Source: an uncultured Coriobacteriia bacterium (GTDB lineage: Bacteria; Actinomycetota; Coriobacteriia; Coriobacteriales; QAMH01). From it: a DNA stretch of 64,000 nt. Positions 29,792-49,541 of this stretch are shown piece after piece. The notes beneath the pieces are model-generated. The model ran no database searches. It was not told the DNA's origin and worked only from the letters and a program-made list of their open reading frames with translations. The position numbers and the translations under genes were made by a program. The DNA is taken from the NCBI GenBank assembly GCA_902475535.1, contig CABRZR010000006.1:22720-86719 (forward strand), in the 5' to 3' direction. The stretch's first letter is position 1. The number at the start of each line of letters is the position of its first letter.

Positions 29792-29809
29792 ACCACCAGC
29801 GTCCTTGCC

Positions 29810-30499
29810 TCATTTCACGACGGTAAAGTCAACGAGAAACGGATTGACGCTGTTCATGAATTCCTTGCGATGGGCCACGGTTGCCTGACCTTCGGGAATA
29901 GTTTTGAAAGCATTGGCAACTTCGGATGCCTCGCTGAAAAACAGCTCGAGTATCCCATCAAACGGGAGCCTGTCATGAGTAACATGACGACCATTTATCA
30001 TACGGTCGATAATGAGATGCTGGTTATACCCGTAGAAAATGTCAGTAGGCATCTTCGCCATGCATCCCGAATGAACGACAAACCATTCGCGAGTGAAGTC
30101 CTCAAATGACACATCCGGCACCGTGCGGCCCAGCAACGTCATCTTCTTCTGGCATCCATCCTCAACGCGCAGGGGAATGGACACGTTTTCAAGGCAGACG
30201 TAGGTCTCTTCGTACATCACCGCGTTTACGCGCTCACACAAAACCGCTGCATATGCATTGGATCTTCTAGCCTCCTCGTATGCGTCGAGATCGACATAGC
30301 GCTCGATGGTAAACGCATCGGCAAGAATCGCTTCAGAAGAGGCGTCACCGCGTTCCTTGGCAGTGACCCGATCGAACTCGAAGGATTCGAGCTCGGGGAT
30401 TTGAAGACACAGGGGTGCATAGACATCGTGCAGAAATGCGTCAAATTCGCTGTCTGAGATAGTCGGATCTTTGCGTAAGAGGTTAATGCAGGAAATCAT
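29810..30499 (-). CDS. Tandem EthD-domain protein (paralog 1 of 3)
   Basis: The ORF was trimmed to the ATG at 30497-30499, giving 229 aa starting MISCINLLRKDPTISDSEFDAFLHDVY. It shares the MIS.(I/M).LL(K/R) start, the Y(N/A)Q(N/H)L(V/I)IDR motif and the LP(V/F)(E/D)G..E(F/L)(W/F)F motif with the proteins at 32862-33563 and 41948-42643. Confidence 0.6.
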   Translation of the reverse strand: MISCINLLRKDPTISDSEFDAFLHDVYAPLCLQIPELESFEFDRVTAKERGDASSEAILADAFTIERYVDLDAYEEARRSNAYAAVLCERVNAVMYEETYVCLENVSIPLRVEDGCQKKMTLLGRTVPDVSFEDFTREWFVVHSGCMAKMPTDIFYGYNQHLIIDRMINGRHVTHDRLPFDGILELFFSEASEVANAFKTIPEGQATVAHRKEFMNSVNPFLVDFTVVK

Positions 30500-30626
30500 A
30501 GCACCTGCCCTTTCTACTCCAAAAACGGTTTTGGGATTAGCGGAAGGCGCGCAGATATGGCGCGCCCTCCACAGGAAAAGGAATGTGGTTCGCCAGCGTG
30601 GCACGAGGGCGACCCACGACAAACAC

Positions 30627-31118
30627 CTACATCATGAAGACCTTATAGGCATTGGCCGTATCCTCGTAGCGCTTCTTTATCTCGGCTTTACCACGTAGGT
30701 ACGTCAGTGACATCTCGGTAAAGTACCAGCGGCCATCGATTTTCACGTAGGCGTTGTCATAGTGGGCACGTCCGACAAACTCGCCGCCGTTCTCCGCATC
30801 GTAGAGATCGTCCTCAAGTGACCAGTGTGATGTTGCCGTATCTGGCCCCGTGATGTCGATCCAATGATGATGCCCCTGATGACTCGAGGTCACGTTGTCG
30901 CCGAACTTACCCTTCATGGTCTCGAGCATGCCATCGCGTCCTTCGTAACGGCCACCTGTCGTATTGTTGATGAAGACGAAGTCCTCGACAAGGCATGCAG
31001 CAAGTCCATCCCAGTCCTTGGCGTCGAGCGTGTCCCAATACGTCGCTTGAAGTCGCTCGATCGCACGCATGTCCTCGAGAGCCTGGATGCGTTTTTCAAG
31101 ATCCTCCATGGTGCTCAT
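30627..31118 (-). CDS. SnoaL_4 / NTF2-fold protein (BaiE-like dehydratase/isomerase fold)
   Basis: 163-aa ORF beginning with an N-terminal helix (LEKRIQALEDMRAIERLQATYWDTLDAKDWDGL). It has Tyr27-x4-Asp32, a His cluster at 80-85 (SSHQGHHHW), and WSLEDDL...YDNAYVKIDGRWYF, characteristic of the SnoaL_4 family. Confidence 0.7.
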   Translation of the reverse strand: MSTMEDLEKRIQALEDMRAIERLQATYWDTLDAKDWDGLAACLVEDFVFINNTTGGRYEGRDGMLETMKGKFGDNVTSSHQGHHHWIDITGPDTATSHWSLEDDLYDAENGGEFVGRAHYDNAYVKIDGRWYFTEMSLTYLRGKAEIKKRYEDTANAYKVFMM

Positions 31119-31130
31119 GGCAATCGCTCC

Positions 31131-31880
31131 TTACAAGAGGCTGAATCCGCCCTCTTCGTAGATGGTCTCGCCAGTGATGAACGAGGCATCATCCGAGGCG
31201 AGGAAGAGGGCGACGCTTACCATCTCCTCGATCTCGCCATAGCGACCAAACGGCATCTTTGCCAGGAAGGCGGCGTTGCGCTCCGGGTCGAACCTCGTGC
31301 CTTCCGTGATGCGAGTCTTCGAGGTGCCCGGGGCAACGGCGTTGACGTGAATGTCGTATTTGGCGAGCTCAAGCGCCATAACCTGCGTGAGCATGCTCAC
31401 GGCTGCCTTGGAAGGGCCGTAGGGCGTGATGCCGCCGATGGTCTTGCGTGCGCTATTGGAGCTCGTGTTGACGATATATCCCTTGATGCCCTTATCGACC
31501 ATCGTACGCGCAACGGCCTGGCCCACGTAAAACACGCCGTTCAGATTCGTGTCCATGACGTCGAGCCAGCCTTCCTGACTGCACTCGAGGAAAGGCTGAC
31601 GATGGGTGATGCCCGCATTGTTCATGAGGACGTCGATATGACCAAACTCCTCGATGACCTTGGCGACGCTCTCCTGCACCTGCCCATAGTCGCGAACATC
31701 ACAGTGCATGCAATACACGCGCTCGTTATCGGCGTAGACCTCTTCCATGGTATCGTCTTCGATATCGAAGACGATGACCTGTGCGCCTTCCCTCACGAGC
31801 TGCTCGGTCATGCCACGACCCAGACCATTGGCACCGCCGGTCACCAGCGCGATTTTGTCGATGAACCTTTGCTTTTCCAT
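31131..31880 (-). CDS. Short-chain dehydrogenase/reductase (classical SDR, 249 aa)
   Basis: Motifs ALVTGGANGLG, NNAG and catalytic YGPSKAA. It lies 12 nt upstream of the SnoaL_4 gene. Confidence 0.88.
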   Translation of the reverse strand: MEKQRFIDKIALVTGGANGLGRGMTEQLVREGAQVIVFDIEDDTMEEVYADNERVYCMHCDVRDYGQVQESVAKVIEEFGHIDVLMNNAGITHRQPFLECSQEGWLDVMDTNLNGVFYVGQAVARTMVDKGIKGYIVNTSSNSARKTIGGITPYGPSKAAVSMLTQVMALELAKYDIHVNAVAPGTSKTRITEGTRFDPERNAAFLAKMPFGRYGEIEEMVSVALFLASDDASFITGETIYEEGGFSLL

Positions 31881-31898
31881 GGATGCTTCCTTTCGGTC

Positions 31899-32795
31899 CT
31901 ATTGCTTGTCAGCCGTCGCCAGGTGTAGATAGGTTGTGGCACCGCCATCGGCCGCGATGGATTCGCCGTTGATGAAGCTCGCGTCATCGGAAGCGAGAAA
32001 CAGCGCGACCGAAGCGATCTCTTCGGGAAGCGCGTAGCGCTTCATCGACGATGCCTCGCTGAGACCCTTGCGGTTCTGTCCCCTGGGCAGCGTCATGTCC
32101 GTAAGGATGAGCCCGGGGTTCACCGCATTGACACGCACCCCGTAGGCCCCCAGGTCGGTAGCTGCGGCACGGGTTGCGCCCAAAGCCGCGGCCTTGGCCA
32201 TCGCGTAGCCGATAAGATTGCCAGGACCAAAGTGATTGCCCTGGTAGGAGCAGGTATTGACGATAGCACCACCACCTGAGTCGATGATGGCCTGGGCACA
32301 GTAGTGCATGCCGTTGTAGACACCCCAGCAATCGACGTCCATCATGCGCTCGAGATCCTGGCGGGATGCCGTGAGAACCGACCCGTTCACGCAAATGCCG
32401 GCATTGTTCACGAGCACGTCGAGATGTCCTTGCTCGTCGAGTATCTTCTCGACGAGCTTCTGCCAGGCGACCTCGTCGACGACGTCCATGGGAAAGACCA
32501 CGGCCTCTCCCCCGTCATCCCTGATCTGCGCTTCCACACGCCTGAGCCCGTCTTCCTTGACGTCGGTCATGTAAACCGTCGCGCCTTGCTGAGCGAACAT
32601 CTTGGCTTCCATCTCGCCTTGGCCGCCAGCGGCACCAGTCACGATGACCACCTGGCCCTCGAACTTCCCGGAGCCCTTCTCGACCCGAGGCCAGCGCTTC
32701 GCCTGCTCCTCGCCATAGACCTTCTCCTCGAACTCCGCCTGACCAGGCCCCGAGAGGATGACGTCATCGAAAAATTCCGCGCGCTTTGACTTCAT
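31899..32795 (-). CDS. SDR with an approximately 50-aa N-terminal extension
   Basis: The ORF was trimmed to the ATG at 32793-32795, preceded by GGAGAG. Motifs VIVTGAAGGQG, NNAG and catalytic YAMAKAA. Confidence 0.85.
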   Translation of the reverse strand: MKSKRAEFFDDVILSGPGQAEFEEKVYGEEQAKRWPRVEKGSGKFEGQVVIVTGAAGGQGEMEAKMFAQQGATVYMTDVKEDGLRRVEAQIRDDGGEAVVFPMDVVDEVAWQKLVEKILDEQGHLDVLVNNAGICVNGSVLTASRQDLERMMDVDCWGVYNGMHYCAQAIIDSGGGAIVNTCSYQGNHFGPGNLIGYAMAKAAALGATRAAATDLGAYGVRVNAVNPGLILTDMTLPRGQNRKGLSEASSMKRYALPEEIASVALFLASDDASFINGESIAADGGATTYLHLATADKQ

Positions 32796-32810
32796 GGTTC
32801 TCTCCATTCA

Positions 32811-32852
32811 GGAAAAAGCGGCCGCATCGAATTCCATATCCGATGCGGCCGC
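32811..32852 (-). terminator. Strong intrinsic terminator between the EthD gene and the SDR genes
   Basis: Perfect 12-bp stem GCGGCCGCATCG / CGATGCGGCCGC with an 11-nt loop. On the minus strand it is followed by TTTTT. It lies 10 nt after the EthD stop and its T-tract ends 15 nt before the SDR start. Confidence 0.75.
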
Positions 32853-32861
32853 ATGAATCGA

Positions 32862-33563
32862 CTAGTCTTCCAGTTCGACGGGAACCGCTTCGACAAAGTA
32901 GGTCGTCACCGTTCCGATGAACTCGGCGGCATGGACGCTTGCGCGCTTCTTGAAGCCCACGCTGCCATAGCATTCGTCGAAGGCTTCCATGTCCTCGAAC
33001 CAGAACTCGACCATACCCTCGACCGGGAGATCCTTATAGTGGACCTCTTCGTCACCGATGCAGCGGTCGATCACCAGGTTCTGGTTGTAGCCGCAGCATC
33101 CTCCCATCAGTTCCACCAGTATGGAGTGGACGTACCACCACTCGAAGTGGAAGGTCATGGCATCGACGCCCTCGGCGCGGTCGCAGAACGAGACGCGCTT
33201 GATGATGTCGCGACCCTTGAGGTACTCGGGGACGAGCTTGTCGAATTTCCTGACCGTGACAAGCGCGGAGATTGGCTTTTCCACGATGGGTTCGAGCACG
33301 TCGCGAAGGGCATCGCCGGCCTGGGTCATGCACTTTGCCATGTCCCCGTAGCTGTCGAAGATCATCTCTATGAAACCGTCGATGTCAATCGCCCCGCGAC
33401 ACAGATGCGAACGCTGCTGCTTATCGGTCACGAAGTTGATCTCGCACTTGCGCAGCAGGGGCATCTTGGCGATTACGTCACGCGCCTCCCCCATCATCAC
33501 CGCGCGGAATTCCTCTTCGGAAATTCCCTCCTTGCACTTGAGTAGATTAATTCTGGAAATCAT
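32862..33563 (-). CDS. Tandem EthD-domain protein (paralog 2 of 3)
   Basis: 233-aa ORF starting MISRINLLKCKEGISEEEFRAVMMGE. Its second half (IIKRVSFCDRAEGVDAMTFHFEWWYVHS...YNQNLVIDR...LPVEGMVEFWFEDMEAFDECY) repeats the EthD pattern. Confidence 0.65.
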   Translation of the reverse strand: MISRINLLKCKEGISEEEFRAVMMGEARDVIAKMPLLRKCEINFVTDKQQRSHLCRGAIDIDGFIEMIFDSYGDMAKCMTQAGDALRDVLEPIVEKPISALVTVRKFDKLVPEYLKGRDIIKRVSFCDRAEGVDAMTFHFEWWYVHSILVELMGGCCGYNQNLVIDRCIGDEEVHYKDLPVEGMVEFWFEDMEAFDECYGSVGFKKRASVHAAEFIGTVTTYFVEAVPVELED

Positions 33564-33588
33564 GACTACTCCCCTTCTTCAAGGTTGT

Positions 33589-34851
33589 TTAGTTCTCGGC
33601 ATTCTTGGCTTCCATCATGGCAGCATCGCGAGCCTTCATCTTGTTGTAGATCGGCAGACCGATTGCAAGCAGGATGATTGCGATGATGCAAAGGACGCCC
33701 AGGATGGGAAACGCCGTGCTATAGCTGCCCGTTGCGGCGAGCGTGTTGGCGGAGAGCATGGGGCCGATGACGGCCGCAAGCGCATAGCCCCAGTACATGA
33801 AGCCATAGTTCTGGCCCATGTTGGCCGGGCCAAAGGCATCGCCAGTAAGCGAAGGCATGATGGCCATGATGCCGCCAAAGCACATGCCCAGCACGATCGA
33901 CTCGATGATGAAGGGCATCGTGGAATCGGTGTTTCCATAGAGGAACAGGTGAATCACCGCGGTGATGCCGATAACGATGAACAGCGTCTGGAATCGTCCG
34001 ATCTTGTCGGAGAGAGTGCCAAAGCCAAAGCGTCCGGCGGCATTGGCAACGGCGAAGATGCTGACCATCATGGCGCCCGTCGCGGCATCCATGCCCGCTT
34101 GCGTCTGGCCGACGAGGGATGCGGTACCGAGCATGAACACGCCCGTGCATGCGGTGAGCGCGAATACGATGACCATGATCCAGAAGAGCGGGGTCTTCAT
34201 CATCTCGGGCGTAGTGTAGCTCCTGCGGTTCTTGGCCTCCTCGTCAACGGGAGGATTCCAACCCTCGGGCTGGTAGTCTGCAGGCGGCAGAACGTAGCAA
34301 AGCCACGAGAAGATGAGGAACATGACGATGCTGAACGCGCCCACGACCATGAACGAGGGCATGGGACCGATTGCCTGCACGATCATGTTTCCGACCGGGG
34401 CAGTCCACAGCGGCCACAAGGCCATCGTGGCGAGCGAGATACCGTTGACGAGGCCCTTCTTGTCCGGGAACCAGCGCGTGGTCAAGGCCAGCGACGTGTT
34501 GTAGATAATGCCATCGGCAAAGCCGACGATGATGCCGAAGGTGATGAGCAGCATGATGGGATTCGTTGAAAAGCCCGTGAGAATCCAGCCGATGCCAAAG
34601 ACGATACCGCTGACGAGCATGATCTTGTGAGCCGCGAACTTGCGCTGGAACCAGCCGCCAACGGGGCCACCCGCAAAGCCAATGACAACGATGGCGAGCG
34701 TGTAGGCGAGTGCCACGATCTGCGGCGACCAGCCAAACTCGGCCATCATGGGTTTCTGAAAAATGCTGTAGCAATTCAATGATGCGGTGATCGCTCCGCA
34801 CATTGCCGCGCCGACGAGAACTACCCAGCGCGATTTAGGCTTCATTGCCAT
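33589..34851 (-). CDS. MFS transporter, oxalate/formate-antiporter (OFA)-like subfamily
   Basis: The ORF was trimmed to the ATG at 34849-34851, 4 nt after GGAGGA, giving 420 aa. It has 12 predicted TMs and a TTRWFPDKKGL motif shared with the partial MFS at the window end. Confidence 0.8.
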   Translation of the reverse strand: MAMKPKSRWVVLVGAAMCGAITASLNCYSIFQKPMMAEFGWSPQIVALAYTLAIVVIGFAGGPVGGWFQRKFAAHKIMLVSGIVFGIGWILTGFSTNPIMLLITFGIIVGFADGIIYNTSLALTTRWFPDKKGLVNGISLATMALWPLWTAPVGNMIVQAIGPMPSFMVVGAFSIVMFLIFSWLCYVLPPADYQPEGWNPPVDEEAKNRRSYTTPEMMKTPLFWIMVIVFALTACTGVFMLGTASLVGQTQAGMDAATGAMMVSIFAVANAAGRFGFGTLSDKIGRFQTLFIVIGITAVIHLFLYGNTDSTMPFIIESIVLGMCFGGIMAIMPSLTGDAFGPANMGQNYGFMYWGYALAAVIGPMLSANTLAATGSYSTAFPILGVLCIIAIILLAIGLPIYNKMKARDAAMMEAKNAEN

Positions 34852-35152
34852 GTGTTCCTCCAATATAGCTTCCGAAAGATTACGTGCATGCGAAAGGCAT
34901 CGCCTTTCCCCCAAACCGAGACCCCTCCTCCTTTCGTTTCGACGTGCAAACCGTTCTATACGCACATGATTCCGATGCTGCGATACGTGCTGATGTGCCG
35001 GAGTCAATTGATGCCGAAACTGGACTAGATCCTCACCGCTGCGTTGCGGTTCATGCCAAGAAGCCAGAGAAAACAATGAGGAAGATGACCCCACTTGCCT
35101 TGAAGGTATCCCTCCTCACGAGATGTATGCTATGAGGGTTTCAAGATGACCT

Positions 35153-35174
35153 CAATAACGCACTTAAAAGTAAG
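35153..35174 (-). promoter_or_regulatory. Cluster motif copy S1 (CAATAACGCACTTAAAAGTAAG on the plus strand)
   Basis: It matches S3 at 22 of 23 positions including the following A. It sits in the 360-bp non-coding region upstream of the OFA-MFS gene. In gene orientation it reads CTTACTTTTAAGTGCGTTATTG. Confidence 0.55.
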
Positions 35175-35211
35175 AAGCTGCCGTATACGTAAGTACGACA
35201 GCCAAATTTGG

Positions 35212-36609
35212 CTACAGAAAGCCAAGTCCTCTCATGAGCATGACGCTGGCGATGAGAAGGGCTGCGGTGATGACCGCATAGGGCCCGTTCCACTTGAGAC
35301 TCGCCTCCATGGGAGATGCCTGCACCATGTCCGCAACGGCGATGACATTTGCCGAGGCGGGGCAGATCGTATTGCCCAACGCCCAGCTCATCGACAGGAC
35401 AAGCGCAAGGTACGCAGCCGATATTCCGCACAGCGCAGGGTCAATGGCACCTCCTATGACGGCCGTTGCCACGATGGGATGAATCCCCGCCGCACAGGTA
35501 AGCAAGACGATGATGACGATGGCCGTCGTCAGAAGCAGCACGCTTTGACCGGTGGTGAGCACGAGGGCTTGCGCGATGACATCCCCGATGCCCGAATATC
35601 CGATGCTCTGGGCGAGCATGCCCGCTCCCGCGAAGAGGACGATCTGGTTCTTGGCACCGGGAAGCTTCTTCTCGAAATACGCGTTCTTGAGCTCCTTGCG
35701 ATATAGGGAAAACCGCCTGATGAAGAGCATCCAGACAAAGGGCCACACCAGCGATGCCATGGCGACGACGATGATGGCCGAAAGGCCGAACAGTTGGGAA
35801 ACCAGGGCGATGAAGACTATGAGGAGCACGGAGAAGACGGCGAGCTCCGCCACCTTTGCCTTGTCGATGCTTCCGGGGGCATCCTTGGATGCACTCGCGC
35901 CATCGTCCATCGCGGAAGCCTTCCCACCCAGCTTGCGCGAGAGCACCGTCATCAGGATGCCGACGCCCTCTGCGACAAGAGCGCAAACGATTGCGCAGGG
36001 GGCAAAGCTCACCCACTCTGCGCTTGTCACCGAAACGACCAGAGCGATGGTCGCCGACGTGGGCGCCCATATCATGCACGTGACGAACCCGCGCGCAAGG
36101 GCCGTCCCCAGGAGCCTCTTGTTGGCTCCCAGACGGCTTTCACGCGACATCTCGAACGTAAGCGGTACGGCGGCGATGCTTATGAGCGCACCGGCTACAG
36201 CCGCCATGCCGCTTACGAGCGAATAGTATCGTCCCTCCGAGTTGGCATATCGCGCAAACAGGCTCCTCAGCGATTCGTTATAGCCCCCATGTTGGACGGG
36301 TATGCCAATAAGCGGAATCAGGATGAACATGACGATGAGGTCGGCGTTCTTGCGAAGCGCACGCACCCATTCCTCGACCGGTGCCTGGGCATACAGCAGC
36401 AACCCGACGCTTATGACAATGAGGACGATGCCGATGAGCCGTGACGATCCCGTCGAGACGAAAATGCTCATCACGAGCACCACGACCATGAGGACAGCGT
36501 TCACGTCATCGAGCAGCGGAGCATGCAGAAAGACGTTGATGATGTAGCACACGGCGAAGCACAGGGTGATGACGCTACGCGTGGTACGTATGGCAACGGG
36601 CTCTTTCAT
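35212..36609 (-). CDS. Polytopic permease of unknown specificity (two-repeat ion-transporter-superfamily-like architecture)
   Basis: 465-aa ORF behind the RBS AAGGGAGAGGG. It has about 12 hydrophobic helices split by a central hydrophilic loop (LGGKASAMDDGASASKDAPGSIDKAK). I recognise no named motif. Confidence 0.6.
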   Translation of the reverse strand: MKEPVAIRTTRSVITLCFAVCYIINVFLHAPLLDDVNAVLMVVVLVMSIFVSTGSSRLIGIVLIVISVGLLLYAQAPVEEWVRALRKNADLIVMFILIPLIGIPVQHGGYNESLRSLFARYANSEGRYYSLVSGMAAVAGALISIAAVPLTFEMSRESRLGANKRLLGTALARGFVTCMIWAPTSATIALVVSVTSAEWVSFAPCAIVCALVAEGVGILMTVLSRKLGGKASAMDDGASASKDAPGSIDKAKVAELAVFSVLLIVFIALVSQLFGLSAIIVVAMASLVWPFVWMLFIRRFSLYRKELKNAYFEKKLPGAKNQIVLFAGAGMLAQSIGYSGIGDVIAQALVLTTGQSVLLLTTAIVIIVLLTCAAGIHPIVATAVIGGAIDPALCGISAAYLALVLSMSWALGNTICPASANVIAVADMVQASPMEASLKWNGPYAVITAALLIASVMLMRGLGFL

Positions 36610-36714
36610 CGGACCCTCTCCCTTTGAAAAGGCAAACGAGAACTGTAAGGGCGCAGGAGGACGTTTCCCCCTGCGCCCATATGACGGCGCGAGACGAACT
36701 AATCTGTGGCAGGG

Positions 36715-38034
36715 CTAGCTATTAACCGGTGTACCGTCCTTGCGGTAGTAGCGTTTCATGAGGAAGATCGCGACGAGAATCGAAACGACGTCAGCGGCGA
36801 TGATGAAGAAGGCAAGGGAGATCGCATTTCCCGTCCCGGCGATAATCGCGGTCGCAATGGCCGGGGCCATGCCGCCAAAAACCGCGGCCGCAAGGTTGTA
36901 GGCGAGACCGACGCCGCTGTTGCGCGTCTCGGTGGGATACACCTCGGATGCCGCCGTGGCCACCGCCACCGCGTTGAGTGACTGGAAGGGCAGCAGACAT
37001 GCCAGGGCGCAGATCATGATCAGCACGGCATGCCCGTTGATGACGGCCCAGAAGACCGGGTAGGCAAGTACGATGAATCCCAGGCACGCGATGATGACAG
37101 ACTTCCTGCGCCCGAACTTGTCCGCGAACATGCCCGCAAACGGGCAGAGGACCAAATATACAGCAACGACGGCGGTATTGACGATAAAGCCCTCGAGCAT
37201 GGTCCCGCCGACGAACTCCTTGATATAGGTAGGCAGGTAGGTCACCAACAGGTAGTAGGAGACGCTGGTGCCGGCAAGCAGGCCGATGTTGGTGATCATG
37301 GCGACCCAATGCTTCTTGAAGAGGACCTTGACGGGCGTGTGATCTTCCTCGGTGGCCTTCTTCTGCTCCTTCATCTTCTCGAACTCGGGAGGCTCGGGCA
37401 CGCTTTTGCGCAGGTAGACGCCATAGATGGCGACGACGATGCCGATGAGGAACGGAATGCGCCAACCCCAGGCGTAAAGATCGGGCTGGGATAGCACCGA
37501 CGTGCAAATCAGACCGGTGATCGATCCGATGAGCATGCCGACGCCGACACTGAACGGCTGCCAGCTGACGAGGAAGGAGGTGTTCTTGCCGTTGTTGAAC
37601 TCAGAGATGAACGTGAGGGCGGAACCGAACTCGCCGCCAGTCGCCAGGCCCTGCAGCAAGCGCAGGACCGTGAGCAGGATGGGTGCCATGATGCCAATCT
37701 GCTCATAGGTCGGCAGACATCCCATGAGCATGGTGCATATGCCTATCGCCATGATGGTGACGGTGAGCGACTTCACGCGCCCGTGCTTATCCGCGTAGGC
37801 TCCCATGATGAGGCCGCCAATGGGGCGCACGACAAAGCCGACGCCAAACACCATGAAACTCATGAGAATGCCGACAACGGGATCTTCGGACGTGAAGAAC
37901 TCCGCGGAAATGACAACCGCAAAGTAACCGTATAGGCCATAGTCGTACCATTCCAGGACGTTACCCAGGCATCCAGAGAGTATCGACTTGAAAAGCGATG
38001 CGTTCTTCTGGGCGGGTTGAACTTCTTTTGCCAT
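36715..38034 (-). CDS. MFS transporter, metabolite:H+ symporter (MHS)-like
   Basis: The ORF was trimmed to the ATG at 38032-38034, after AAAGGGGAG, giving 439 aa. LEWYDYGLYGYFAVVIS resembles the EW(Y/F)DF..YG motif of MHS carriers (ProP/KgtP/ShiA type). Confidence 0.75.
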   Translation of the reverse strand: MAKEVQPAQKNASLFKSILSGCLGNVLEWYDYGLYGYFAVVISAEFFTSEDPVVGILMSFMVFGVGFVVRPIGGLIMGAYADKHGRVKSLTVTIMAIGICTMLMGCLPTYEQIGIMAPILLTVLRLLQGLATGGEFGSALTFISEFNNGKNTSFLVSWQPFSVGVGMLIGSITGLICTSVLSQPDLYAWGWRIPFLIGIVVAIYGVYLRKSVPEPPEFEKMKEQKKATEEDHTPVKVLFKKHWVAMITNIGLLAGTSVSYYLLVTYLPTYIKEFVGGTMLEGFIVNTAVVAVYLVLCPFAGMFADKFGRRKSVIIACLGFIVLAYPVFWAVINGHAVLIMICALACLLPFQSLNAVAVATAASEVYPTETRNSGVGLAYNLAAAVFGGMAPAIATAIIAGTGNAISLAFFIIAADVVSILVAIFLMKRYYRKDGTPVNS

Positions 38035-38227
38035 GCGTGCTCCCCTTTCGTAAAGACCTCCATGCGCCCCAAAACAAACTGCTCCATGTGCGGGAGTCCG
38101 ATATCGCGAGGCGCCTTCCCATCTGCATCTACGCCCGTGCAAAGCATTGCGATCGACACGATCGGGTTACGGGAAGATGCATGTATCCCATCTAAGGGAA
38201 ATGGTATGGCCGGCAGGAAACGGCGCT

Positions 38228-38249
38228 CAATAACGCACAAATAAGTTAG
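38228..38249 (-). promoter_or_regulatory. Cluster motif copy S2 (CAATAACGCACAAATAAGTTAG) with adjacent perfect palindrome CTTACCAAAAGGTAAG (38252-38267)
   Basis: It shares CAATAACGCAC with S1. In gene orientation it reads CTAACTTATTTGTGCGTTATTG, with a TAAC-N10-GTTA dyad. It lies between the ene-reductase stop (38333) and the MHS start (38034). Confidence 0.5.
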
Positions 38250-38332
38250 TCCTTACCAAAAGGTAAGATATGGAGGGGAAAGGCTCCCCGCCTCGAGCAA
38301 GACGAGAAGTCCTCGAGCAGTGGATCAAGCGA

Positions 38333-40393
38333 CTAAATCCGGCATGCAGCCTCTCTGCCATCGATGATGGCGTGCTTGACGAACGCGTTATCGCCTCCCA
38401 GCGTGGAGCCAATCTCCACGACCTCGACACCCGCGTTCCTGAGCTCATCGCAAAACGCGGCATCGCGCTTCTCGGGAAGCATGACGAGAACGCTGTCGCA
38501 GCCAAAGGTGCGCTCCCTGCCATCCACCTCCGCAATGACGAGACCCTTGCGGATCTCCTTGCATGTGGCATTGCGCACGACCTCGACGCCGTTTTCCTCG
38601 AACCAGGGCTCCAAGCGCACCTTGTAGGGCACGGGAACCAATCCGCCGATGTCATCGTCTTCCGAGAGCAGCGTGACGTCCTTTCCGCAGTGGGCCATGA
38701 ACGTTGCGCACTGCGCGCCCTCGGCACCGGCACCCAAAACGACTATCTTCTTGCCCACGGGCATGAAATGCCTGCTCGCCTTGTGTATGAACTCGGGACT
38801 GAAGAGCTTGAGCGGGAGTTTCGCGAGCTTCGAAAGCCCGGGGATGGTGTACACGTTGCTGCCGTCGATACCGGGAATGTCGGGAATCAGATATGGCGAG
38901 CTGTTGGCGAGCATGACCACATCGGGTTTTTCTCGCCTGACGAGCTCTGCCGAGACCTCCTCGTTGAGATGCACCCGCACGTCGTACTTGCCCACCATGG
39001 TGGTGAGGTAATCGTAGATGGGCATGATGTCCTCGACCTTGTTGCCCTTGATCATCGATGCCAGCTTGAGCCTGCCACCCAGCTCGCCGGACCTCTCGTA
39101 CAAGTCCACGTCATGACCGCGAGCCGCCGCGTCAATGGCCGCCTGCATGCCAGCAGGACCTCCGCCGATGACCATTACCTTCTTCCTTGTCTCAGCGGGC
39201 TTGAGCTCGAGCTCCTTCTCGCGCCCGAGCGCGGGATTCACGCGGCAGATACGCGGTGAGACGAGCGGGTCCTGACACGACCCGCAGCGATTGCACCGGC
39301 GAATCTCGTCGATGCGTTCCTCCTTCACCTTGTTGGGAAACTCGGGGTCTGCCCATAGATAGCGGCCAAAGCCGATGATATCGGCATAGCCTTCCTCGAG
39401 CGCGCGCTCGCCCTTGACCTCGTCCATACGACCGACGCACACGACAGGCACCTTGACGGCATCGTGGATGTACTTTGCCGCCGGAAGCAGCAGTCCCATG
39501 TCCTCGTAGTCCTTCATGTAAGGACGCATGTGGGGCTCGGGGTCGGGATACGGAAAGTAATCCGGAATGAAGCGGAACGGAAGCTCGCCATAACCATATC
39601 CGGTCACGCTGATGTATTGGTATCCAATCATCTCGAGCGCTATGGCGGTGTCGCGCGCCATGTCGGGCGTGATACCGTTATTTCCCGTCAAGGGCGAGAA
39701 CTCGATGCCGTTGATGCGCGTGCCGATGAGAAAGTCGGGACCGCATGCCTGCCGAATCATCTGGTAGAGCTCTGCCATGACACGCGTGCGATTGGCCACG
39801 TTCTCGAAGGCATACTCGTCATCGCGCTTGTTCCATATGGGGCTGAGGAAGCTGTTGAGCAGGTATCCATGTGCGGCATGCACCTCGACACCGTCAAATC
39901 CGGCCTTCTTCATGCGCACGGCGCCCTCGACGATGAGCTTCTCCTTCTCGTGAATCTCCTCGACCGAGAGCCCGCGTGTCGCGCGCCCCTCGGGTTCGGG
40001 AATGGGAAGGTCCTCGGTCTCAATTGTCGACGAGCTGAAGGGTCGCCCTTCGCCGAGCACGGCCGCGGAAGGCCCACCATGGTGGAGCTGGCCTATGATA
40101 TAGCTGTCATGGCGATGCACGGCCTCCGCGAGCTCGGTCAAGCCCGGGATGAACTTGTCATCCCAGACGTTGCAGTAGCGCCCGGGCATGTCATCCCACA
40201 TAACGCCGCCGATGACCACGGCCGCCGCGCCGCCTGCGGCGATGCTCTCGTACAAACCGATTGCCGCGCTTCCATCGGCGGTGCCGTCATCGTTCCAGCG
40301 AAACGTTGACTGGCCCGTCTTCATGATGCGGTTCTTGAAGATAATCTTCGGCGTGATCTCCAGCGGAGACATAAGTTTTTCGAAGCCACCCAT
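38333..40393 (-). CDS. FadH/OYE-type Fe-S flavoenzyme (NADH:flavin oxidoreductase / enoate-reductase family), paralog A
   Basis: 686-aa ORF. The OYE TIM-barrel signature is HAAHGYLLNSFLSPIWNKRDDEY. The Cys cluster is CNRCGSCQDPLVSPRIC. Two dinucleotide folds are present (VMVIGGGPAGMQAA and VVLGAGAEGAQCA). Confidence 0.88.
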   Translation of the reverse strand: MGGFEKLMSPLEITPKIIFKNRIMKTGQSTFRWNDDGTADGSAAIGLYESIAAGGAAAVVIGGVMWDDMPGRYCNVWDDKFIPGLTELAEAVHRHDSYIIGQLHHGGPSAAVLGEGRPFSSSTIETEDLPIPEPEGRATRGLSVEEIHEKEKLIVEGAVRMKKAGFDGVEVHAAHGYLLNSFLSPIWNKRDDEYAFENVANRTRVMAELYQMIRQACGPDFLIGTRINGIEFSPLTGNNGITPDMARDTAIALEMIGYQYISVTGYGYGELPFRFIPDYFPYPDPEPHMRPYMKDYEDMGLLLPAAKYIHDAVKVPVVCVGRMDEVKGERALEEGYADIIGFGRYLWADPEFPNKVKEERIDEIRRCNRCGSCQDPLVSPRICRVNPALGREKELELKPAETRKKVMVIGGGPAGMQAAIDAAARGHDVDLYERSGELGGRLKLASMIKGNKVEDIMPIYDYLTTMVGKYDVRVHLNEEVSAELVRREKPDVVMLANSSPYLIPDIPGIDGSNVYTIPGLSKLAKLPLKLFSPEFIHKASRHFMPVGKKIVVLGAGAEGAQCATFMAHCGKDVTLLSEDDDIGGLVPVPYKVRLEPWFEENGVEVVRNATCKEIRKGLVIAEVDGRERTFGCDSVLVMLPEKRDAAFCDELRNAGVEVVEIGSTLGGDNAFVKHAIIDGREAACRI

Positions 40394-40413
40394 GGATTGA
40401 TTCCTCCAATGTC

Positions 40414-41160
40414 CTAGAACAGCGTGAAGCCGCCATCCTCAACCAAGGTCTCGCCGGTAACGTAGGAAGCGTCGTCACTTGCCAGGAACAGCGCGACGTT
40501 TGCGGCCTCCTCGGGAGCGCCATAGCGGCCCATGGGAATGTTGGCGAGAAACTGCGCGTTGCGCTCGGGGTCATTCCTCGTGCCCTCGGTAATGCGCGTC
40601 ATGCTCGTGCCCGGCCCGAAGGCATTGACGCGGATTCCATGTTCGGCAAGCTCCAAGGCGAGCCATTTGGTCAGCTGGGACACACCCGCCTTGCTGGCGG
40701 CGTACGCGCCGGTGTTCTTGGAGACCGTGCGCGACGTGCATGAGCTCGTGTTGACGATGGCACCCTTGATTCCGCGTTCGATCATCGACTTCGCCACGGC
40801 CTGGTCCATCCAAAAGCATCCATTGAGGTTGATGTCGATGACGCGCCGCCATTCCTCCTCGGTCGTGCTCTGCACGCTCCCGCGTTTGATGATGCCCGCG
40901 TTGCTGAAAAGGATGTCGATATGCCCGTATGCCTCGAGCACCTCGTCTACCACCTTGTTGCACATGGCGTAATCGGCAACGTCGAGGGGATAGATCGTGA
41001 TGTTCTCGTTGCCCTCGAATTCGCGTACCAACGTGTCACCCTCGATATCGAGCGCCGCAACCTTGGCACCCTCTTCGAGAAGGCGGCAGACAATGCAATG
41101 GCCAATGCCGTTTGCCGCGCCCGTCACCACGGCCACTTTATCCTCGAACCTCTTGCCCAT
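40414..41160 (-). CDS. Short-chain dehydrogenase/reductase (248 aa)
   Basis: Motifs AVVTGAANGIG, SNAG and catalytic YAASKAG. It lies 20 nt upstream of ene-reductase A and 24 nt downstream of the HxlR gene. Confidence 0.88.
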   Translation of the reverse strand: MGKRFEDKVAVVTGAANGIGHCIVCRLLEEGAKVAALDIEGDTLVREFEGNENITIYPLDVADYAMCNKVVDEVLEAYGHIDILFSNAGIIKRGSVQSTTEEEWRRVIDINLNGCFWMDQAVAKSMIERGIKGAIVNTSSCTSRTVSKNTGAYAASKAGVSQLTKWLALELAEHGIRVNAFGPGTSMTRITEGTRNDPERNAQFLANIPMGRYGAPEEAANVALFLASDDASYVTGETLVEDGGFTLF

Positions 41161-41184
41161 CGTTTCTCCTTACCTTTAGCTGGT

Positions 41185-41676
41185 CTATTCTTCTGCCTCG
41201 TCCTCGTCACACGCGGTGTCGAAGTACCAGACAATGTGCTCGCGCGTCTTATCGATCTTGCCGTCCTCACCCCCGGTGCCGTATTCGAGCTTCCCATCGT
41301 TGAGGGAGCCCTTCGTTTGCTTGAGTGCCTCAACCGAGAAGTTGCGGTGCACGACGCCCCAATCGCGAATGAGATACAGGAGGTTTGCCATGCTGATGCC
41401 GTCTGGCGTGAGGAGATAGTCGACCCACAGGGGCTTGTCTTCGACCACGACACGTTCGAGCATGCCCGTCTCCTCGAGCTCGTTGAGATGCTGCGAGAAC
41501 ATCTTGTCCGATATCTTGTACGGGATGATTTTCTTGAGCTCGCCGTAGCGCGCACGTTGATGAGGTTGCAAGCTCAGGTACCAGATGATGAACGGCTTCC
41601 ACTTGCCACCCAAGATCTTTGTGAGGACCTGCGTAAGCATGCATGAGGTTAACCTGTCGATACTGTTAGGATCCAT
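41185..41676 (-). CDS. HxlR-family winged-helix transcriptional regulator with an approximately 60-aa C-terminal extension
   Basis: The ORF was trimmed to the ATG at 41674-41676, 8 nt after GGGAGG. The HxlR signature is LGGKWKPFIIWYL...RYGELKKIIPYKISDKMFSQHLNELEETGMLERV. It is the first gene of the HxlR-SDR-ene-reductase run. Confidence 0.85.
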   Translation of the reverse strand: MDPNSIDRLTSCMLTQVLTKILGGKWKPFIIWYLSLQPHQRARYGELKKIIPYKISDKMFSQHLNELEETGMLERVVVEDKPLWVDYLLTPDGISMANLLYLIRDWGVVHRNFSVEALKQTKGSLNDGKLEYGTGGEDGKIDKTREHIVWYFDTACDEDEAEE

Positions 41677-41947
41677 CACAATCGCCTCCCGAGCCACGCC
41701 ATTACCTCGACCGGCCTCTGGTCAAAGACACTCACGGAATCCCTGCGCAATAGAGATGCAAGGAGATTATTATTGCCCCCCCCTGAAAGCAATCACAGAG
41801 CCAGGGGGTTTGTGGTAGATACAGGACCGAAGATATGTCCTCATCGACGCCTGCCCTTCCCCGTCTATAACGACATGGGGCCGGACTCGTCGAGCCCGGC
41901 CCAAACCACCACACTTCAAGCTAGGTTCGCTATCTGGCAATGGCAAG

Positions 41948-42643
41948 CTAGAGTATGTCGTGTACCTCGGTAAGATACGTGTTAATCGCACCGATGAACT
42001 CGCTGCCGTGCTGCGACGTCCTCTTGAACTCGGGAGAGTCGTAGCATTCGTTGAAGGCATCCATGTTCTCGAACCAGAACTCGACGACGCCCTCGACAGG
42101 AAGCTCGTCATAATGGACGGAAACGCCGTTGACGATGCGATCGATCACGAGATTCTGCGCATAGCCAACGTAACCCGGCATGGTGTGCACCATTTCGGTG
42201 TGAACGTCCCACCACTGGTACATCCACTCCTCGGCGCTCACGCCCTCGGCTCGACCCATGAACGACACGCGCTTGATAAGCGGCTTGTCGCCATTCAACA
42301 AGTATTTGGGAGTGTGTTTCACGAACTTCTTCACGCAAACGAGAATGGGATTATGCGGGTCGGCGAACTTCGGAACGTCATCGGCACCCTTGCCGTCTAA
42401 CGACATGACGCCCTCGACCATGTCGCCATAGCTATCAAACTGCAGCTCGGAATAGCCATCGATGATGATGGGACCCTGGCCCAAGGGATGACGATGCTCG
42501 TTGTCGCATACCGCGTGCTGAGAGTAATGGCGCAGGTTCTTCATCTCCGCGGCGATGGGACCATGGACGTTGAGCCAGTAATCCTTGAATTCTTCCTGCG
42601 TCGTGCCCTCTTTGCGCTTCAAGAGACCCATTCTGCTAATCAT
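41948..42643 (-). CDS. Tandem EthD-domain protein (paralog 3 of 3)
   Basis: 231-aa ORF. The N-terminus MISRMGLLKRKEGTTQEEFKDYWLNVHGPIAAEMKNLRHYSQHAV closely follows the EthD-family consensus as I recall it. A second EthD-like half follows. It is divergent from ene-reductase B. Confidence 0.7.
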   Translation of the reverse strand: MISRMGLLKRKEGTTQEEFKDYWLNVHGPIAAEMKNLRHYSQHAVCDNEHRHPLGQGPIIIDGYSELQFDSYGDMVEGVMSLDGKGADDVPKFADPHNPILVCVKKFVKHTPKYLLNGDKPLIKRVSFMGRAEGVSAEEWMYQWWDVHTEMVHTMPGYVGYAQNLVIDRIVNGVSVHYDELPVEGVVEFWFENMDAFNECYDSPEFKRTSQHGSEFIGAINTYLTEVHDIL

Positions 42644-42887: not shown

Positions 42888-44954
42888 ATGATGCAAGAAT
42901 TCGAACATCTCATGTCACCCATCGAAATCGCCCCGAGCTTCAAGATGAAGAACAGGATCATGAAGGCGCCTCAGTCAACATGGAGGTGGAATCTCGATGG
43001 TACCGCCGATGGCAGCGCGGGCATTGACCTATACGAGAGCATGGCCAAGGGCGGTGTCGGTGCCATCGACATAGCCGGCATCAACTGGGAGCCGCCGGTA
43101 GGTGGCGGCATCTACCTCTGCGCCTACGATGACAGGTTCATCTCGGGCCTCACCGAGCTTGCCGAGCGTCTGCACAAGTACGATTGCCGCGTGATCGGCC
43201 AGCTCCATCATGGCGGTCCGCTCGCTCCCGTGCAAGGCGGCGGCAGGCCCATCTGCGCCTCGACGCTCGAAATAGAGGACCTTCCCACCCCTCCTCCCGA
43301 GGGACTCGCGACCCATGGTCTCACGCACGACGAGCTCATCGAGAAACGCCAGCTCATCGTCGATGCAGCCGTACGCTTATGGAAGGCCGGTTTTGATGGC
43401 GTGGAAATCCACGCGGCCCACGGTTACTTCCTCAACAGCTTCCTCAGCCCCATTTGGAACCACCGCGATGACGAGTACGGCCCCCAGACGGCCGAGAGCC
43501 GCACGCGCATCATGAAGGAGATTCATGACATGGTACGCGACGCATGCGGGCCGGACTTCGTCATAGGCACGCGCATCAACGGCCAGGAATGGTCTCCGCT
43601 CGTCTCGGGCGGCATCACGCCCGAGCTCGCCGTCAAGAATGCCAAGGCCCTCGAATCCTATGGTTACCAGTACATAAGCGTATCGGGATATGGATACGGC
43701 AAGCTCCCGTTCCGCTACTGTCCCGACTACTTCCCCTACCCCGATCCGGAATCCTTCATGGAACCCTATATGGAGGATTTCAACGATCTTGGCATCCTCA
43801 TGCCGGGAATCCGAGCCGTCAAGGAAGCCGTTAACGTTCCGGTCATCGGCGTCGGCCGCATGGACGAGGTCAAGGGCGAGCGCGTGCTGCGAGAGGGATA
43901 TGCCGATATCATCGCCTACGGGCGCTACCTCTGGGCCGATCCCGAGTTCGCCAACAAGGTCAAGGAGGGTCGTACCGACGAGATTCGCCGGTGCAATCGC
44001 TGCGCGAGCTGCGAGGATCCCGTCACGTCCCCTCGCATCTGCCGCGTGAACCCCGCGCTCGGACGCGAACGCGAACTCGAGCTCAAACCCGTCGAGACAA
44101 GCAAGAAGGTCATGGTGATCGGCGGTGGCACGGCGGGAATGCAATGTGCGCTCGATGCCGCCGAACGTGGATTCGACGTGACGATATACGAGAAGAAGGG
44201 CGAACTCGGTGGCCGCATCAAGCTCGCCTCCATGATAAAGGGCGACAAGGACGAAGACGTCATGCCGCTTTTCGATTACCTCACCACCATGATCGAGAAG
44301 TCCAACGTCACCGTCAAGCTCAAGACCGAAGTGACATTGGACCTCGTGAAACGCGAGAAACCGGACATCGTCGCGCTCGCAGACAGCTCTCCCTACTTCA
44401 TTCCCGACATCGAGGGCATCGACCGAAAGAACGTCTTCACGATACCGGCAATGACCAAGCTTGCCTCCATCCCCATGAAGATGTTCGGTCCCAGAAAGCT
44501 CGCGACCATGAGCGAAAAGGTCTTTCCCGTCGGCAAGAAGATCGTGATTCTGGGTGCCGGCGCCGAGGGAGCCCAATGCGCGACGTTTTTGGCTCATCGC
44601 GGGAAGGAAGTCGTCCTCCTTGCCGAGACCGAAGACGTTGGCGGCCTCGTGCCCCAAAAGTACAAGGTACGCCTCGTTCCGTGGTTCGAGGAGCATGGCG
44701 TGCGCATCGTCTATAACTCGCAACTGCTGCGCATCGAGAAGAAGTCGGTGACTGTCGAAGTCGATGGGAAAGCCGAGGAAATTGCCTGCGATAGCGTGAT
44801 GGTCATGCTTCCGGAACAACATGACCCCAGCTTCTACGAACAACTCGTGCAGATCGTGCCCGAGGTCTACGAAATCGGCTCGACACTCGGAGGCGACAAC
44901 GCCTTCCTGAAACATGCGATGCTCGACGGACGCTTGGCGGCCGTGAAGATGTAA
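42888..44954 (+). CDS. FadH/OYE-type Fe-S flavoenzyme, paralog B
   Basis: 688-aa ORF. By eye, 41 of the first 66 aligned residues are identical to paralog A. It has the same Cys cluster spacing (CNRCASCEDPVTSPRIC) and the same dinucleotide folds (VMVIGGGTAGMQCA, VILGAGAEGAQCA). Confidence 0.88.
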   Translation: MMQEFEHLMSPIEIAPSFKMKNRIMKAPQSTWRWNLDGTADGSAGIDLYESMAKGGVGAIDIAGINWEPPVGGGIYLCAYDDRFISGLTELAERLHKYDCRVIGQLHHGGPLAPVQGGGRPICASTLEIEDLPTPPPEGLATHGLTHDELIEKRQLIVDAAVRLWKAGFDGVEIHAAHGYFLNSFLSPIWNHRDDEYGPQTAESRTRIMKEIHDMVRDACGPDFVIGTRINGQEWSPLVSGGITPELAVKNAKALESYGYQYISVSGYGYGKLPFRYCPDYFPYPDPESFMEPYMEDFNDLGILMPGIRAVKEAVNVPVIGVGRMDEVKGERVLREGYADIIAYGRYLWADPEFANKVKEGRTDEIRRCNRCASCEDPVTSPRICRVNPALGRERELELKPVETSKKVMVIGGGTAGMQCALDAAERGFDVTIYEKKGELGGRIKLASMIKGDKDEDVMPLFDYLTTMIEKSNVTVKLKTEVTLDLVKREKPDIVALADSSPYFIPDIEGIDRKNVFTIPAMTKLASIPMKMFGPRKLATMSEKVFPVGKKIVILGAGAEGAQCATFLAHRGKEVVLLAETEDVGGLVPQKYKVRLVPWFEEHGVRIVYNSQLLRIEKKSVTVEVDGKAEEIACDSVMVMLPEQHDPSFYEQLVQIVPEVYEIGSTLGGDNAFLKHAMLDGRLAAVKM

Positions 44955-45041: not shown

Positions 45042-45087
45042 GGGCGGGTGAGGGTCCCTCCTCCTCACTCGCCCCCTCCTTTTTTTA
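45042..45087 (+). terminator. Probable intrinsic terminator of ene-reductase B
   Basis: The stem GGGCGGGTGAGG / CCTCACTCGCCC pairs at 11 of 12 positions. It is followed by CCTCC and then a T7 run (45080-45086). Confidence 0.5.
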
Positions 45088-49537: not shown

Positions 49538-49541
49538 TCTC

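Follow-up and report, generated by a model that had tools for sequence, protein, structure and literature searches.

Three tandem-EthD paralogues, candidate enone-forming enzymes, in a conserved ene-reductase and dehydrogenase island of gut Coriobacteriia

The stretch of DNA analysed here (the window) comprises 64,000 nucleotides of contig CABRZR010000006.1 from an uncultured Coriobacteriia bacterium; its G+C content is ~58-61%, and its gene map was built with guidance from G+C at third codon positions (GC3). Within it lies a 15-kb island that holds genes for three EthD proteins (EthD1, EthD2 and EthD3), three short-chain dehydrogenases (SDR_a, SDR_b and SDR_c), one SnoaL protein resembling the dehydratase BaiE, two Fe-S/FMN/FAD ene-reductases of the old yellow enzyme type (OYE_1 and OYE_2), three transporters and a regulator of the HxlR family. 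Outside the island the window is ordinary chromosome, with two-component systems, GGDEF, HtpG and LuxR-type regulators. EthD is a large family to which, to our knowledge, almost no chemistry has been assigned.

The three EthD proteins are encoded on the minus strand, EthD1 at 29810-30499 (229 aa), EthD2 at 32862-33563 (233 aa) and EthD3 at 41948-42643 (231 aa). The EthD1 open reading frame (ORF) could be extended to a TTG codon at 30622, and the ATG at 30499 is the sensible choice because it yields the MIS... start found across the family. Read directly from the translations, EthD1 begins with MISCINLLR and the other two with MISRINLLK or MISRMGLLK; a second motif takes the forms YNQHLIIDR, YNQNLVIDR and YAQNLVIDR, and a third the forms LPFDGILELFF, LPVEGMVEFWF and LPVEGVVEFWF. 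An earlier reading of the bare sequence (the original prediction) had quoted the same coordinates and three motifs, all of which are present in all three proteins. Each protein exceeded the gathering score of Pfam EthD (PF07110, 22 bits) with two matched stretches, at 44 bits for EthD1, 32.9 for EthD2 and 85.9 for EthD3, and Pfam also returned weaker matches to the related MmlI family. Against TIGR02118 ('EthD family reductase', curated cut-off 30.5 bits), EthD3 scored 65 bits, EthD1 fell just under the cut-off at 29.9 and EthD2 under it at 22.8. EthD2 and EthD3 are 48% identical (E 7e-68), while EthD1, the most divergent paralogue, shares 26-28% identity with either (E 1e-16 to 1e-22); a search of the window for a fourth tandem-EthD copy found none.

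The N-half and C-half profiles of the family matched each other with an hhalign probability of 99.9% (E 6e-35), which, together with the paired Pfam stretches, bears out the predicted tandem domain duplication. AlphaFold2 models of EthD3 (predicted local distance difference test, pLDDT, 95; predicted template modelling score, pTM, 0.90) and EthD1 (pLDDT 87.5) show a beta-alpha-beta-beta-alpha-beta unit twice, that is, two ferredoxin-like repeats. In Foldseek, tandem ferredoxin-like proteins were matched with a probability of 1.00, and the matches of EthD1 were those of EthD3, so the predicted ferredoxin-like, dimeric alpha-beta-barrel fold also held. The proteins begin straight in strand 1, their cysteines are few and unconserved among the paralogues, and no cofactor motif is present in them. 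The three ORFs are thus confirmed as a real, paralogous and non-artefactual feature.

Conserved residues were located over a broad alignment of 68 diverse members, with EthD3 numbering. W144, G160, Q163, G185 and E188 are conserved in at least 90% of the sequences, H148, Y161, R169 and H212 in 48 to 59 of the 68, and position 164 is Asn in 48 and His in a further nine. These C-half residues are kept in all three paralogues of the window, except that EthD1 has His at position 164. The N-half carries a mirror motif (W23, H27, Q42, N43, D62 and E66), which is intact in EthD3 save for a His at position 43, while EthD2 (M, A, I) and EthD1 (L, Y, F, I) have degenerate versions. That the site has decayed asymmetrically, in the N-half of two paralogues out of three, is new here. 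The conservation pattern nominates His148, Tyr161, Gln163, Asn/His164, Asp168, Arg169, Glu188 and His212, all in the C-half, as candidate catalytic residues.

From position 42643 downward on the minus strand, EthD3 is followed by the HxlR-family transcriptional regulator (41185-41697; Pfam HxlR, E 5e-17), SDR_c (40414-41160; 248 aa; Pfam adh_short_C2, E 6e-66) and OYE_1 (38333-40393; 686 aa, with FMN (OYE) and FAD/NAD(P) domains; Pfam Oxidored_FMN and Pyr_redox_2). Next come MFS_2 (36715-38142; Pfam MFS_1 and Sugar_tr), a major facilitator superfamily (MFS) protein of the metabolite/H+ symporter (MHS) family resembling TcuC, ProP and ShiA, a 465-aa polytopic membrane protein that matches neither a Pfam nor an NCBIfam family (35212-36609), and MFS_1, a monocarboxylate-type MFS transporter (33589-35094, from a GTG at 35094; Pfam MFS_1). 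EthD2 then precedes SDR_b (31899-32807; 302-aa ORF; adh_short_C2, E 4e-57), the classical short-chain dehydrogenase SDR_a (31131-31880; 249 aa; adh_short_C2, E 1e-63), the SnoaL/NTF2-like BaiE homologue (30627-31118; 163 aa; Pfam SnoaL_4, E 5e-24) and, last, EthD1. OYE_2 (42888-44954; 688 aa; Pfam), an Fe-S flavin ene-reductase, lies on the plus strand, divergent from EthD3 across a 244-bp region. The original prediction had placed each EthD gene next to a reductase or transporter. This is accurate for EthD2, which sits between an MFS transporter and an SDR, and for EthD3, with an OYE/FAD reductase on one side and the HxlR regulator after it; EthD1, by contrast, comes after SnoaL and abuts a DUF554 membrane protein, its nearest reductase being two genes off.

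A terminator-like minus-strand hairpin with a 15-bp stem and a TTTTT tract lies directly 3' of the EthD2 stop codon (32818-32852), and further terminator-like hairpins follow the 465-aa gene (35176-35203) and OYE_2 (45042-45074); transcription of the island in this species thus probably proceeds in several units, whereas in cultured relatives it forms one tight operon. The gap from the stop codon of SnoaL to the start codon of EthD1 contains a GC-rich hairpin without a T-tract, GGAAGGCGCGC / GCGCGCCCTCC (30542-30570), with arms of 11 nt and a loop of 7 nt. The EthD1 segment is also variable within the species. In another contig of the same species (L036, 4504-5384), the flanks are 98-99% identical to those of window positions 29795-30624, and an EthD1 allele of only ~75% DNA identity, in the opposite orientation, replaces EthD1 and its 125-bp leader. 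The breakpoints of this inverted cassette are exactly the stop codons of DUF554 and SnoaL, the orientation in related species is that of the window, and the search for boundary repeats gave only a 10-nt pair at chance level, none of them convincing. Downstream of the island, a molybdopterin oxidoreductase (787 aa) and a 4Fe-4S ferredoxin-like partner occupy 49115-51905; this pair adjoins the island in some strains and is replaced or separated by other genes in others.

The island is a recurrent feature of gut genomes. In a scan of species representatives, the locus falls within uncultured Coriobacteriia/Eggerthellaceae, and E. lenta gave no close homologue. A 2.18-Mb contig of GCA_025992705.1 carries the exact EthD3 sequence, as do many metagenome assemblies from the human gut; it is recorded on 273 public contigs, and 492 index blocks match it. 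In public records these proteins are named 'EthD domain-containing protein' or 'ethyl tert-butyl ether degradation protein EthD', from metagenome-assembled genomes (MAGs) of Coriobacteriia or Coriobacteriaceae. Identical proteins from uncultured gut Coriobacteriia/Eggerthellaceae MAGs agree with the apparent anaerobe that the original prediction had described. Eggerthellaceae and Oscillospiraceae/Clostridia MAGs contain homologues of 45-100% identity, and aerobic Proteobacteria homologues of 36-43%; the family is of modest size, with 415 members at E<=1e-10 and 74 at E<=1e-30 among 1.84 billion representatives.

The same parts form a single co-directional operon in E. sinensis, Rubneribacter badeniensis, Gordonibacter sp. 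An230 and Eggerthella sp. YY7918 (AP012211.1, 2,539,677-2,560,375), in the order (HxlR-EthD-)MFS-membrane protein-EthD-OYE-OYE-MFS-EthD-SDR-SDR-SDR-SnoaL(-EthD). The operon is frequent in gut Coriobacteriia of human, mouse and chicken, cultured strains included, and a reduced form of the cluster occurs in Oscillospiraceae MAGs. The neighbours specific to each paralogue are kept: EthD3-type genes accompany an OYE, EthD2-type genes stand between MFS and SDR_b, and EthD1-type genes follow SnoaL. The neighbourhood counts are rough, as some loci overlap and some contigs are truncated. In Eggerthellaceae, an OYE lies within 5 kb of 29 of the 39 tandem-EthD ORFs and an SDR within 5 kb of 27 of them; in Clostridia, an OYE is immediately adjacent (within 1 kb) for 5/9 and an HxlR gene nearby for 6/9, and the HxlR gene recurs with the cluster in both groups. 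Clostridial clusters have tripartite ATP-independent periplasmic (TRAP; DctPQM) and divalent anion:sodium symporter (DASS) transporters instead of MFS proteins. In Proteobacteria, an OYE gene and a tandem EthD gene share an 11-nt overlap in Halomonas organivorans, where a divergent SDR adjoins them, Marinobacterium has an OYE-EthD pair, a Rhizobium plasmid carries EthD followed by an 'alkene reductase', and a Roseomonas plasmid carries SDR-EthD-FAD oxidoreductase. The functional link to ene-reductases that had been proposed from the window alone thus finds a counterpart in all three groups, where tandem EthD genes stand beside OYE or SDR genes, and the distinct partners of each paralogue fit sequential steps, one of the two explanations suggested earlier for the triplication.

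Some variations accompany this synteny. Sister species (L011 10777-14310, L012/L013) have an extra SDR between EthD3 and HxlR, and two loci (L010 and L011) have an additional divergent OYE of ~637 aa; both genes are missing from the window, so island gene content varies between species. In the clostridial clusters (L027 1913-2668 and 3332-7983; L038 13154-16160), a DUF169 protein follows SnoaL.

OYE_1 and OYE_2 are 65% identical, both have FMN (OYE) and FAD/NAD(P) domains, and both carry the Fe-S motif CxxCxxCx9C (C367xxC370xxC373x9C383 in OYE_1, C369-C385 in OYE_2). The best PDB relatives of OYE_1 are 2-naphthoyl-CoA reductase and 2,4-dienoyl-CoA reductase, and the NCBIfam models for BaiCD, long bilirubin reductase and mycofactocin-OYE match the two proteins about equally, all far under their cut-offs; for BaiCD, the scores are 291 and 287 bits against 825. 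The best PDB sequences for SnoaL are the three entries of the 7alpha-dehydratase BaiE (4l8o, 4l8p and 4leh; E 1.6e-16, full length), and a Y-x4-D pair and the histidines of an S-x-H-x-G-H motif are conserved in the alignment; we take these positions to correspond to the catalytic Tyr, Asp and His of BaiE. SDR_a and SDR_c are 53% identical, and the PDB matches of SDR_b include BaiA2 and 7alpha-hydroxysteroid dehydrogenases (7alpha-HSDHs) without specificity, as is the case for SDR matches overall. Deducing the substrate from the SDRs and OYEs was tried and dropped, since their PDB and NCBIfam matches are generic or far under equivalog cut-offs. The 90%-identity cluster of OYE_1 also lists many 248-aa members named SDR; SDR_c and OYE_1 are just 20 bp apart, and these entries are probably an artefact of gene calls that fuse the two.

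Among the transporters, MFS_1 scores 353 bits and passes the NCBIfam cut-off of 320 for the L-lactate MFS transporter SfMCT; its ORF is 501 aa long from the GTG, whereas gene calls for its orthologues give 420 aa, so that translation probably begins near 34851 and the first ~80 codons are probably untranslated. MFS_2 matches TIGR00883 at 372 bits, under its cut-off. The nearest solved relatives of the clostridial TRAP binding protein are TakP and ketoacid and lactate binders. On these sequence matches, the transporters of two independent lineages suggest that a carboxylic acid is taken up, probably a small alpha-hydroxy or alpha-keto monocarboxylate, and the carboxylate types lend no support to the flavanones and isoflavanones once suggested as substrates. 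The 465-aa membrane protein, whose orthologues in E. sinensis, Rubneribacter, Gordonibacter and YY7918 lie inside the operon, is probably a transporter of a new family; a relation to the similarly placed clostridial DASS transporter was considered and was undetectable. A separate lactate permease is encoded at 47047-48675.

Among proteins of known chemistry, the closest solved enzyme by sequence is 4-methylmuconolactone methylisomerase MmlI (PF09448; 3hds, 3hf5 and 3hfk). A PDB search with the 68-member profile returned only MmlI (E 2.5e-14, over the C-half) and two uncharacterised EthD-like proteins, one MmlI-like and the other BH0200. MmlI has the same ferredoxin-like EthD-type fold, with 24-25% identity and a TM score of 0.8 over one half, and as MmlI is known as a cofactor-free acid-base enzyme, a similar mode of action may be proposed for the EthD proteins. 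With the numbering offset of the H52A entry 3hfk, MmlI His26 and Tyr39 align with EthD3 His148 and Tyr161, while His52 aligns with Val174; these three we take to be the catalytic residues of MmlI. The differences are that MmlI is a single domain of ~105 aa forming homodimers, whereas two domains are fused here, and that it acts in an aerobic methylaromatic pathway rather than beside SDR and OYE genes in an anaerobe. The EthD proteins do not reach the MmlI equivalog level (NF053569, cut-off 180 bits), the best scoring 35 bits.

The only characterised tandem-type EthD enzyme is Hsh3 of Sphingobium sp. Chol11, a purified EthD-type 7beta-hydroxysteroid dehydratase whose product is a 3-oxo-delta4,6 dienone; it is described as EthD/dimeric alpha-beta-barrel, its predicted barrel has eight helices and nine strands, and its authors did not find homologues in human gut metagenomes (PMC12175502). 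The gut family of the window is related to it only distantly, at the domain level. The narrow family hidden Markov model (HMM) gave 7.4 bits against the Novosphingobium aromaticivorans homologue Saro_3662 (WP_011906908.1, 252 aa; L008:12009-12767) and narrow profile-profile hhalign 29-35%, whereas the broad family profile matched the Hsh3 family at 92.8% (E 4e-7, 205 collinear columns), sharing the elements W..H, YxQN and VE..F, which are invariant in the Hsh3 family. In a half-by-half control, the Hsh3 C-half matched both halves of the window family equally well (94.5% and 93%), and the comparison of N-halves gave 11%; the two Hsh3 halves have no detectable likeness to each other, and in the homologue the Pfam EthD match is confined to the C-half. 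Since the match runs through the Hsh3 C-half only, the tandem architectures may have separate origins and a common function does not follow, and direct membership in the Hsh3 family (narrow match 29%) was rejected. In a tblastn search of EthD3 against plasmids, the pNL2 homologue was not among the 77 of 87 matching records listed. What the two share is the EthD family, an alpha/beta-barrel made from one chain of ~240-250 aa, and the C-half motif; the neighbours of Saro_3662 also resemble the island, with flanking SDRs and a nearby NTF2 gene, and the dienone product is of the kind that ene-reductases use. Hsh3 differs in its ~16% identity, its aerobic steroid catabolism and the lack of an OYE partner in the region examined.

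Other relatives are more remote. The chalcone isomerase of Eubacterium ramulus (3zph/4c9s), one of the proteins that the original prediction had listed for comparison, likewise has two ferredoxin-like domains in one chain, is cofactor-free, and acts upstream of an enoate reductase in a gut anaerobe; the match is one of fold only (TMq 0.45-0.54, 10-14% identity, root-mean-square deviation ~7 A), it is undetected by the family profile, and MmlI proved closer. With chalcone isomerase, the tandem ferredoxin-like proteins that Foldseek matched by fold alone (TM 0.45-0.69, 8-16% identity) were putative monooxygenases, an anthrone-oxidase-like protein, sulfur oxygenase reductase, coproheme decarboxylase and the peroxidase DyP. 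Chalcone isomerase, coproheme decarboxylase, chlorite-dismutase-like proteins, DyP and sulfur oxygenase reductase were set aside as functional models: TM is 0.4-0.69 and identity 6-14%, the sequences give no signal, and heme or metal motifs are absent. In the ethABCD system of Rhodococcus ruber, EthD is needed for the EthABC P450 system, and its own catalytic role is not known. It belongs to the same Pfam family, and tblastn to the plasmid gene covers the N-half at 34% identity, whereas it is a single-domain accessory to a P450 in an aerobe.

Taken together, the context and the relatives suggest that the EthD proteins most likely make or reposition double bonds that the neighbouring reductases saturate. 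The known chemistries of the family (isomerase, dehydratase and decarboxylase) are all cofactor-free acid-base reactions next to a carbonyl. The context supplies SDRs to make a carbonyl, OYEs to consume a conjugated C=C bond and a second, BaiE-type dehydratase, and stepwise reductive dehydroxylation is the most economical account of the island; given the Hsh3 precedent, a dehydratase is at least as likely as an isomerase or tautomerase. Our preferred reading, held tentatively and at somewhat less than even confidence, is that the EthD proteins are cytoplasmic, cofactor-independent acid-base enzymes acting as dehydratases, with isomerase the nearest alternative, in a CoA-independent, bai-like reductive dehydroxylation. 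We infer its chemical steps and the nature of its substrate from fold, family, paralogy, conserved synteny and conserved residues. Each EthD chain alone would form a whole two-lobed alpha/beta barrel. A hydroxylated, probably alicyclic, carboxylic acid would be imported, and an SDR would oxidise a ring or chain hydroxyl to a ketone. An EthD paralogue, or the BaiE-like SnoaL at one step, would then take an alpha or gamma proton and eliminate water at the beta or vinylogous hydroxyl to form a conjugated enone. The C=C bond would be saturated by one of the two Fe-S/FMN/FAD ene-reductases, after which an SDR would re-reduce the ketone or the cycle would proceed to the next hydroxyl. The three paralogues may serve different positions or stereochemistries in one pathway. 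As for the isomerase or tautomerase role that had been proposed for these proteins, the supply of an enone to the ene-reductases fits the context, while the Hsh3 precedent shifts the choice of chemistry to dehydration.

The logic of the island would be that of bile-acid 7-dehydroxylation without CoA thioesters. Like the bai operon of Clostridium scindens, it combines an SDR (BaiA), an NTF2-like dehydratase (BaiE), Fe-S flavin ene-reductases (BaiCD and BaiH) and an MFS transporter (BaiG). The bai operon differs in having no EthD protein, whereas the island has three or four EthD paralogues across genomes and small-acid transporters. No CoA ligase (BaiB) or CoA transferase (BaiF) was found among the island genes and no island protein reaches a Bai equivalog score, that of the BaiCD model included; the island is bai-like and not a bai operon. 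We know of no 7-dehydroxylation in the Coriobacteriia lineage of the window.

Several observations weigh against dehydration as the EthD reaction. The closest solved relative, MmlI, is an isomerase rather than a dehydratase, and the link to Hsh3 is weak, a precedent from the same superfamily and not a close relative. Immediate OYE adjacency holds for just 12/39 ORFs in Eggerthellaceae and 2/8 in Proteobacteria. The lactate-type MFS and the TakP/lactate-type TRAP binder are equally compatible with lactate or pyruvate as a co-substrate, and the precedent of Rhodococcus EthD makes an accessory function possible. The first of these points is the starting place for a reading in which the EthD proteins are double-bond isomerases or keto-enol tautomerases that release no water, moving a beta,gamma C=C bond into conjugation or fixing the keto tautomer of a phenolic acid to allow the ene-reductases to act. 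The minimal module in aerobes, OYE and EthD with or without an SDR, would suit such a role, as in fatty-acid saturation or terpenoid ketone pathways, and the best PDB match of OYE_1, 2-naphthoyl-CoA reductase, is a dearomatising enzyme. We regard isomerisation as possible and as less probable than dehydration: MmlI His52 is unconserved, the BaiE-type dehydratase and three SDRs of the operon fit hydroxyl removal, and the characterised tandem-type enzyme is a dehydratase. A narrower variant, in which the proteins dehydrate hydroxysteroids or bile acids (for example at 7beta, as Hsh3 does) as part of a bai-like, CoA-independent route in Eggerthellaceae and Oscillospiraceae, draws on Hsh3 itself (PMC12175502), on the BaiE homologue with its conserved catalytic positions, on the BaiCD-class reductases and on SDRs that match BaiA2 and 7alpha-HSDH among others; the literature also describes steroid transformation by the host family. 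Yet there is no specific relationship to Hsh3, the BaiCD score lies far under its cut-off, the SDR matches are generic, no CoA ligase or transferase accompanies the genes, and the small-carboxylate transporters (lactate-type MFS and MHS, with TRAP/TakP-like and DASS in Clostridia) weaken a bile-acid or steroid reading, which we hold to be unlikely.

The EthD proteins could instead be non-catalytic partners of the reductases, serving like Rhodococcus EthD as substrate carriers, chaperones or specificity factors. This would account for the tight, recurrent OYE linkage, down to the overlapping genes of Halomonas, and would agree with the generic NCBI name 'EthD family reductase' in proteins that lack a cofactor motif. 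It is decidedly unlikely in view of the conserved polar cluster of the C-half (W144, H148, Y161, Q163, E188 and H212), which is typical of an active site and two residues of which coincide with MmlI catalytic positions; moreover, EthD1 and EthD2 adjoin SnoaL, SDR and MFS genes rather than an OYE. The fungal EthD proteins MdpH and ClaH are decarboxylases (PMC10890192), and transporters suggesting a carboxylic-acid substrate would suit similar cofactor-free decarboxylases acting on SDR-made beta-keto acids, although such a role leaves the conserved pairing with ene-reductases in three phyla unexplained and seems very improbable. A cofactor-free oxygenase might be entertained for the family as a whole, as homologues in aerobes also adjoin luciferase-like monooxygenases. 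For the window it is unlikely, as had been supposed from the sequence, and was set aside because the host belongs to a strictly anaerobic lineage and there is no signal for ABM: Pfam gave no ABM match at E<=1, as would mark the ActVA-Orf6 type, and the putative monooxygenases match at TM 0.53-0.65 with 8-16% identity.

If the EthD proteins do act as enone-forming dehydratases, the pathway may serve as an electron sink, a CoA-independent reductive dehydroxylation of a poly-hydroxylated cyclic acid in gut Eggerthellaceae and Oscillospiraceae, and perhaps form the genetic basis of an orphan transformation, with tandem EthD and OYE as a general partnership; this wider proposal is doubtful. Quinate- and shikimate-type alicyclic acids are a speculative substrate class. 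PMC7558350 attributes to Brewster et al. the conversion of quinate and shikimate to cyclohexanecarboxylate by gut flora, an old and genetically unassigned observation. Quinate is an alpha-hydroxy acid with four hydroxyls, and the island encodes four dehydratase-like proteins along with alpha-hydroxy-acid-type transporters. Another orphan candidate may be a bai-independent dehydroxylation, 7beta or other, of bile acids and steroids.

The EthD-domain annotation of these proteins and their fold were already known. The searchable literature contained no description of the cluster and no paper joining EthD with Eggerthella or with an ene-reductase. New here are the conserved pairing of ene-reductases and SDRs with the tandem subfamily, the membership of that subfamily in an uncharacterised operon of 12-13 genes that is widespread among gut anaerobes, and a domain-level sequence link, albeit a distant one, to the only characterised tandem-type EthD dehydratase. 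Synteny in three phyla gives the tandem subfamily a concrete putative role, the provision of enones for reduction. Knowledge of the substrate would bring a new reductive pathway into gut microbial metabolism, which could account for an orphan conversion of hydroxy-acids or steroids from the diet or the host, and, if the proposal is true, tandem EthD with OYE would represent a general, unrecognised dehydratase-reductase partnership across bacteria.

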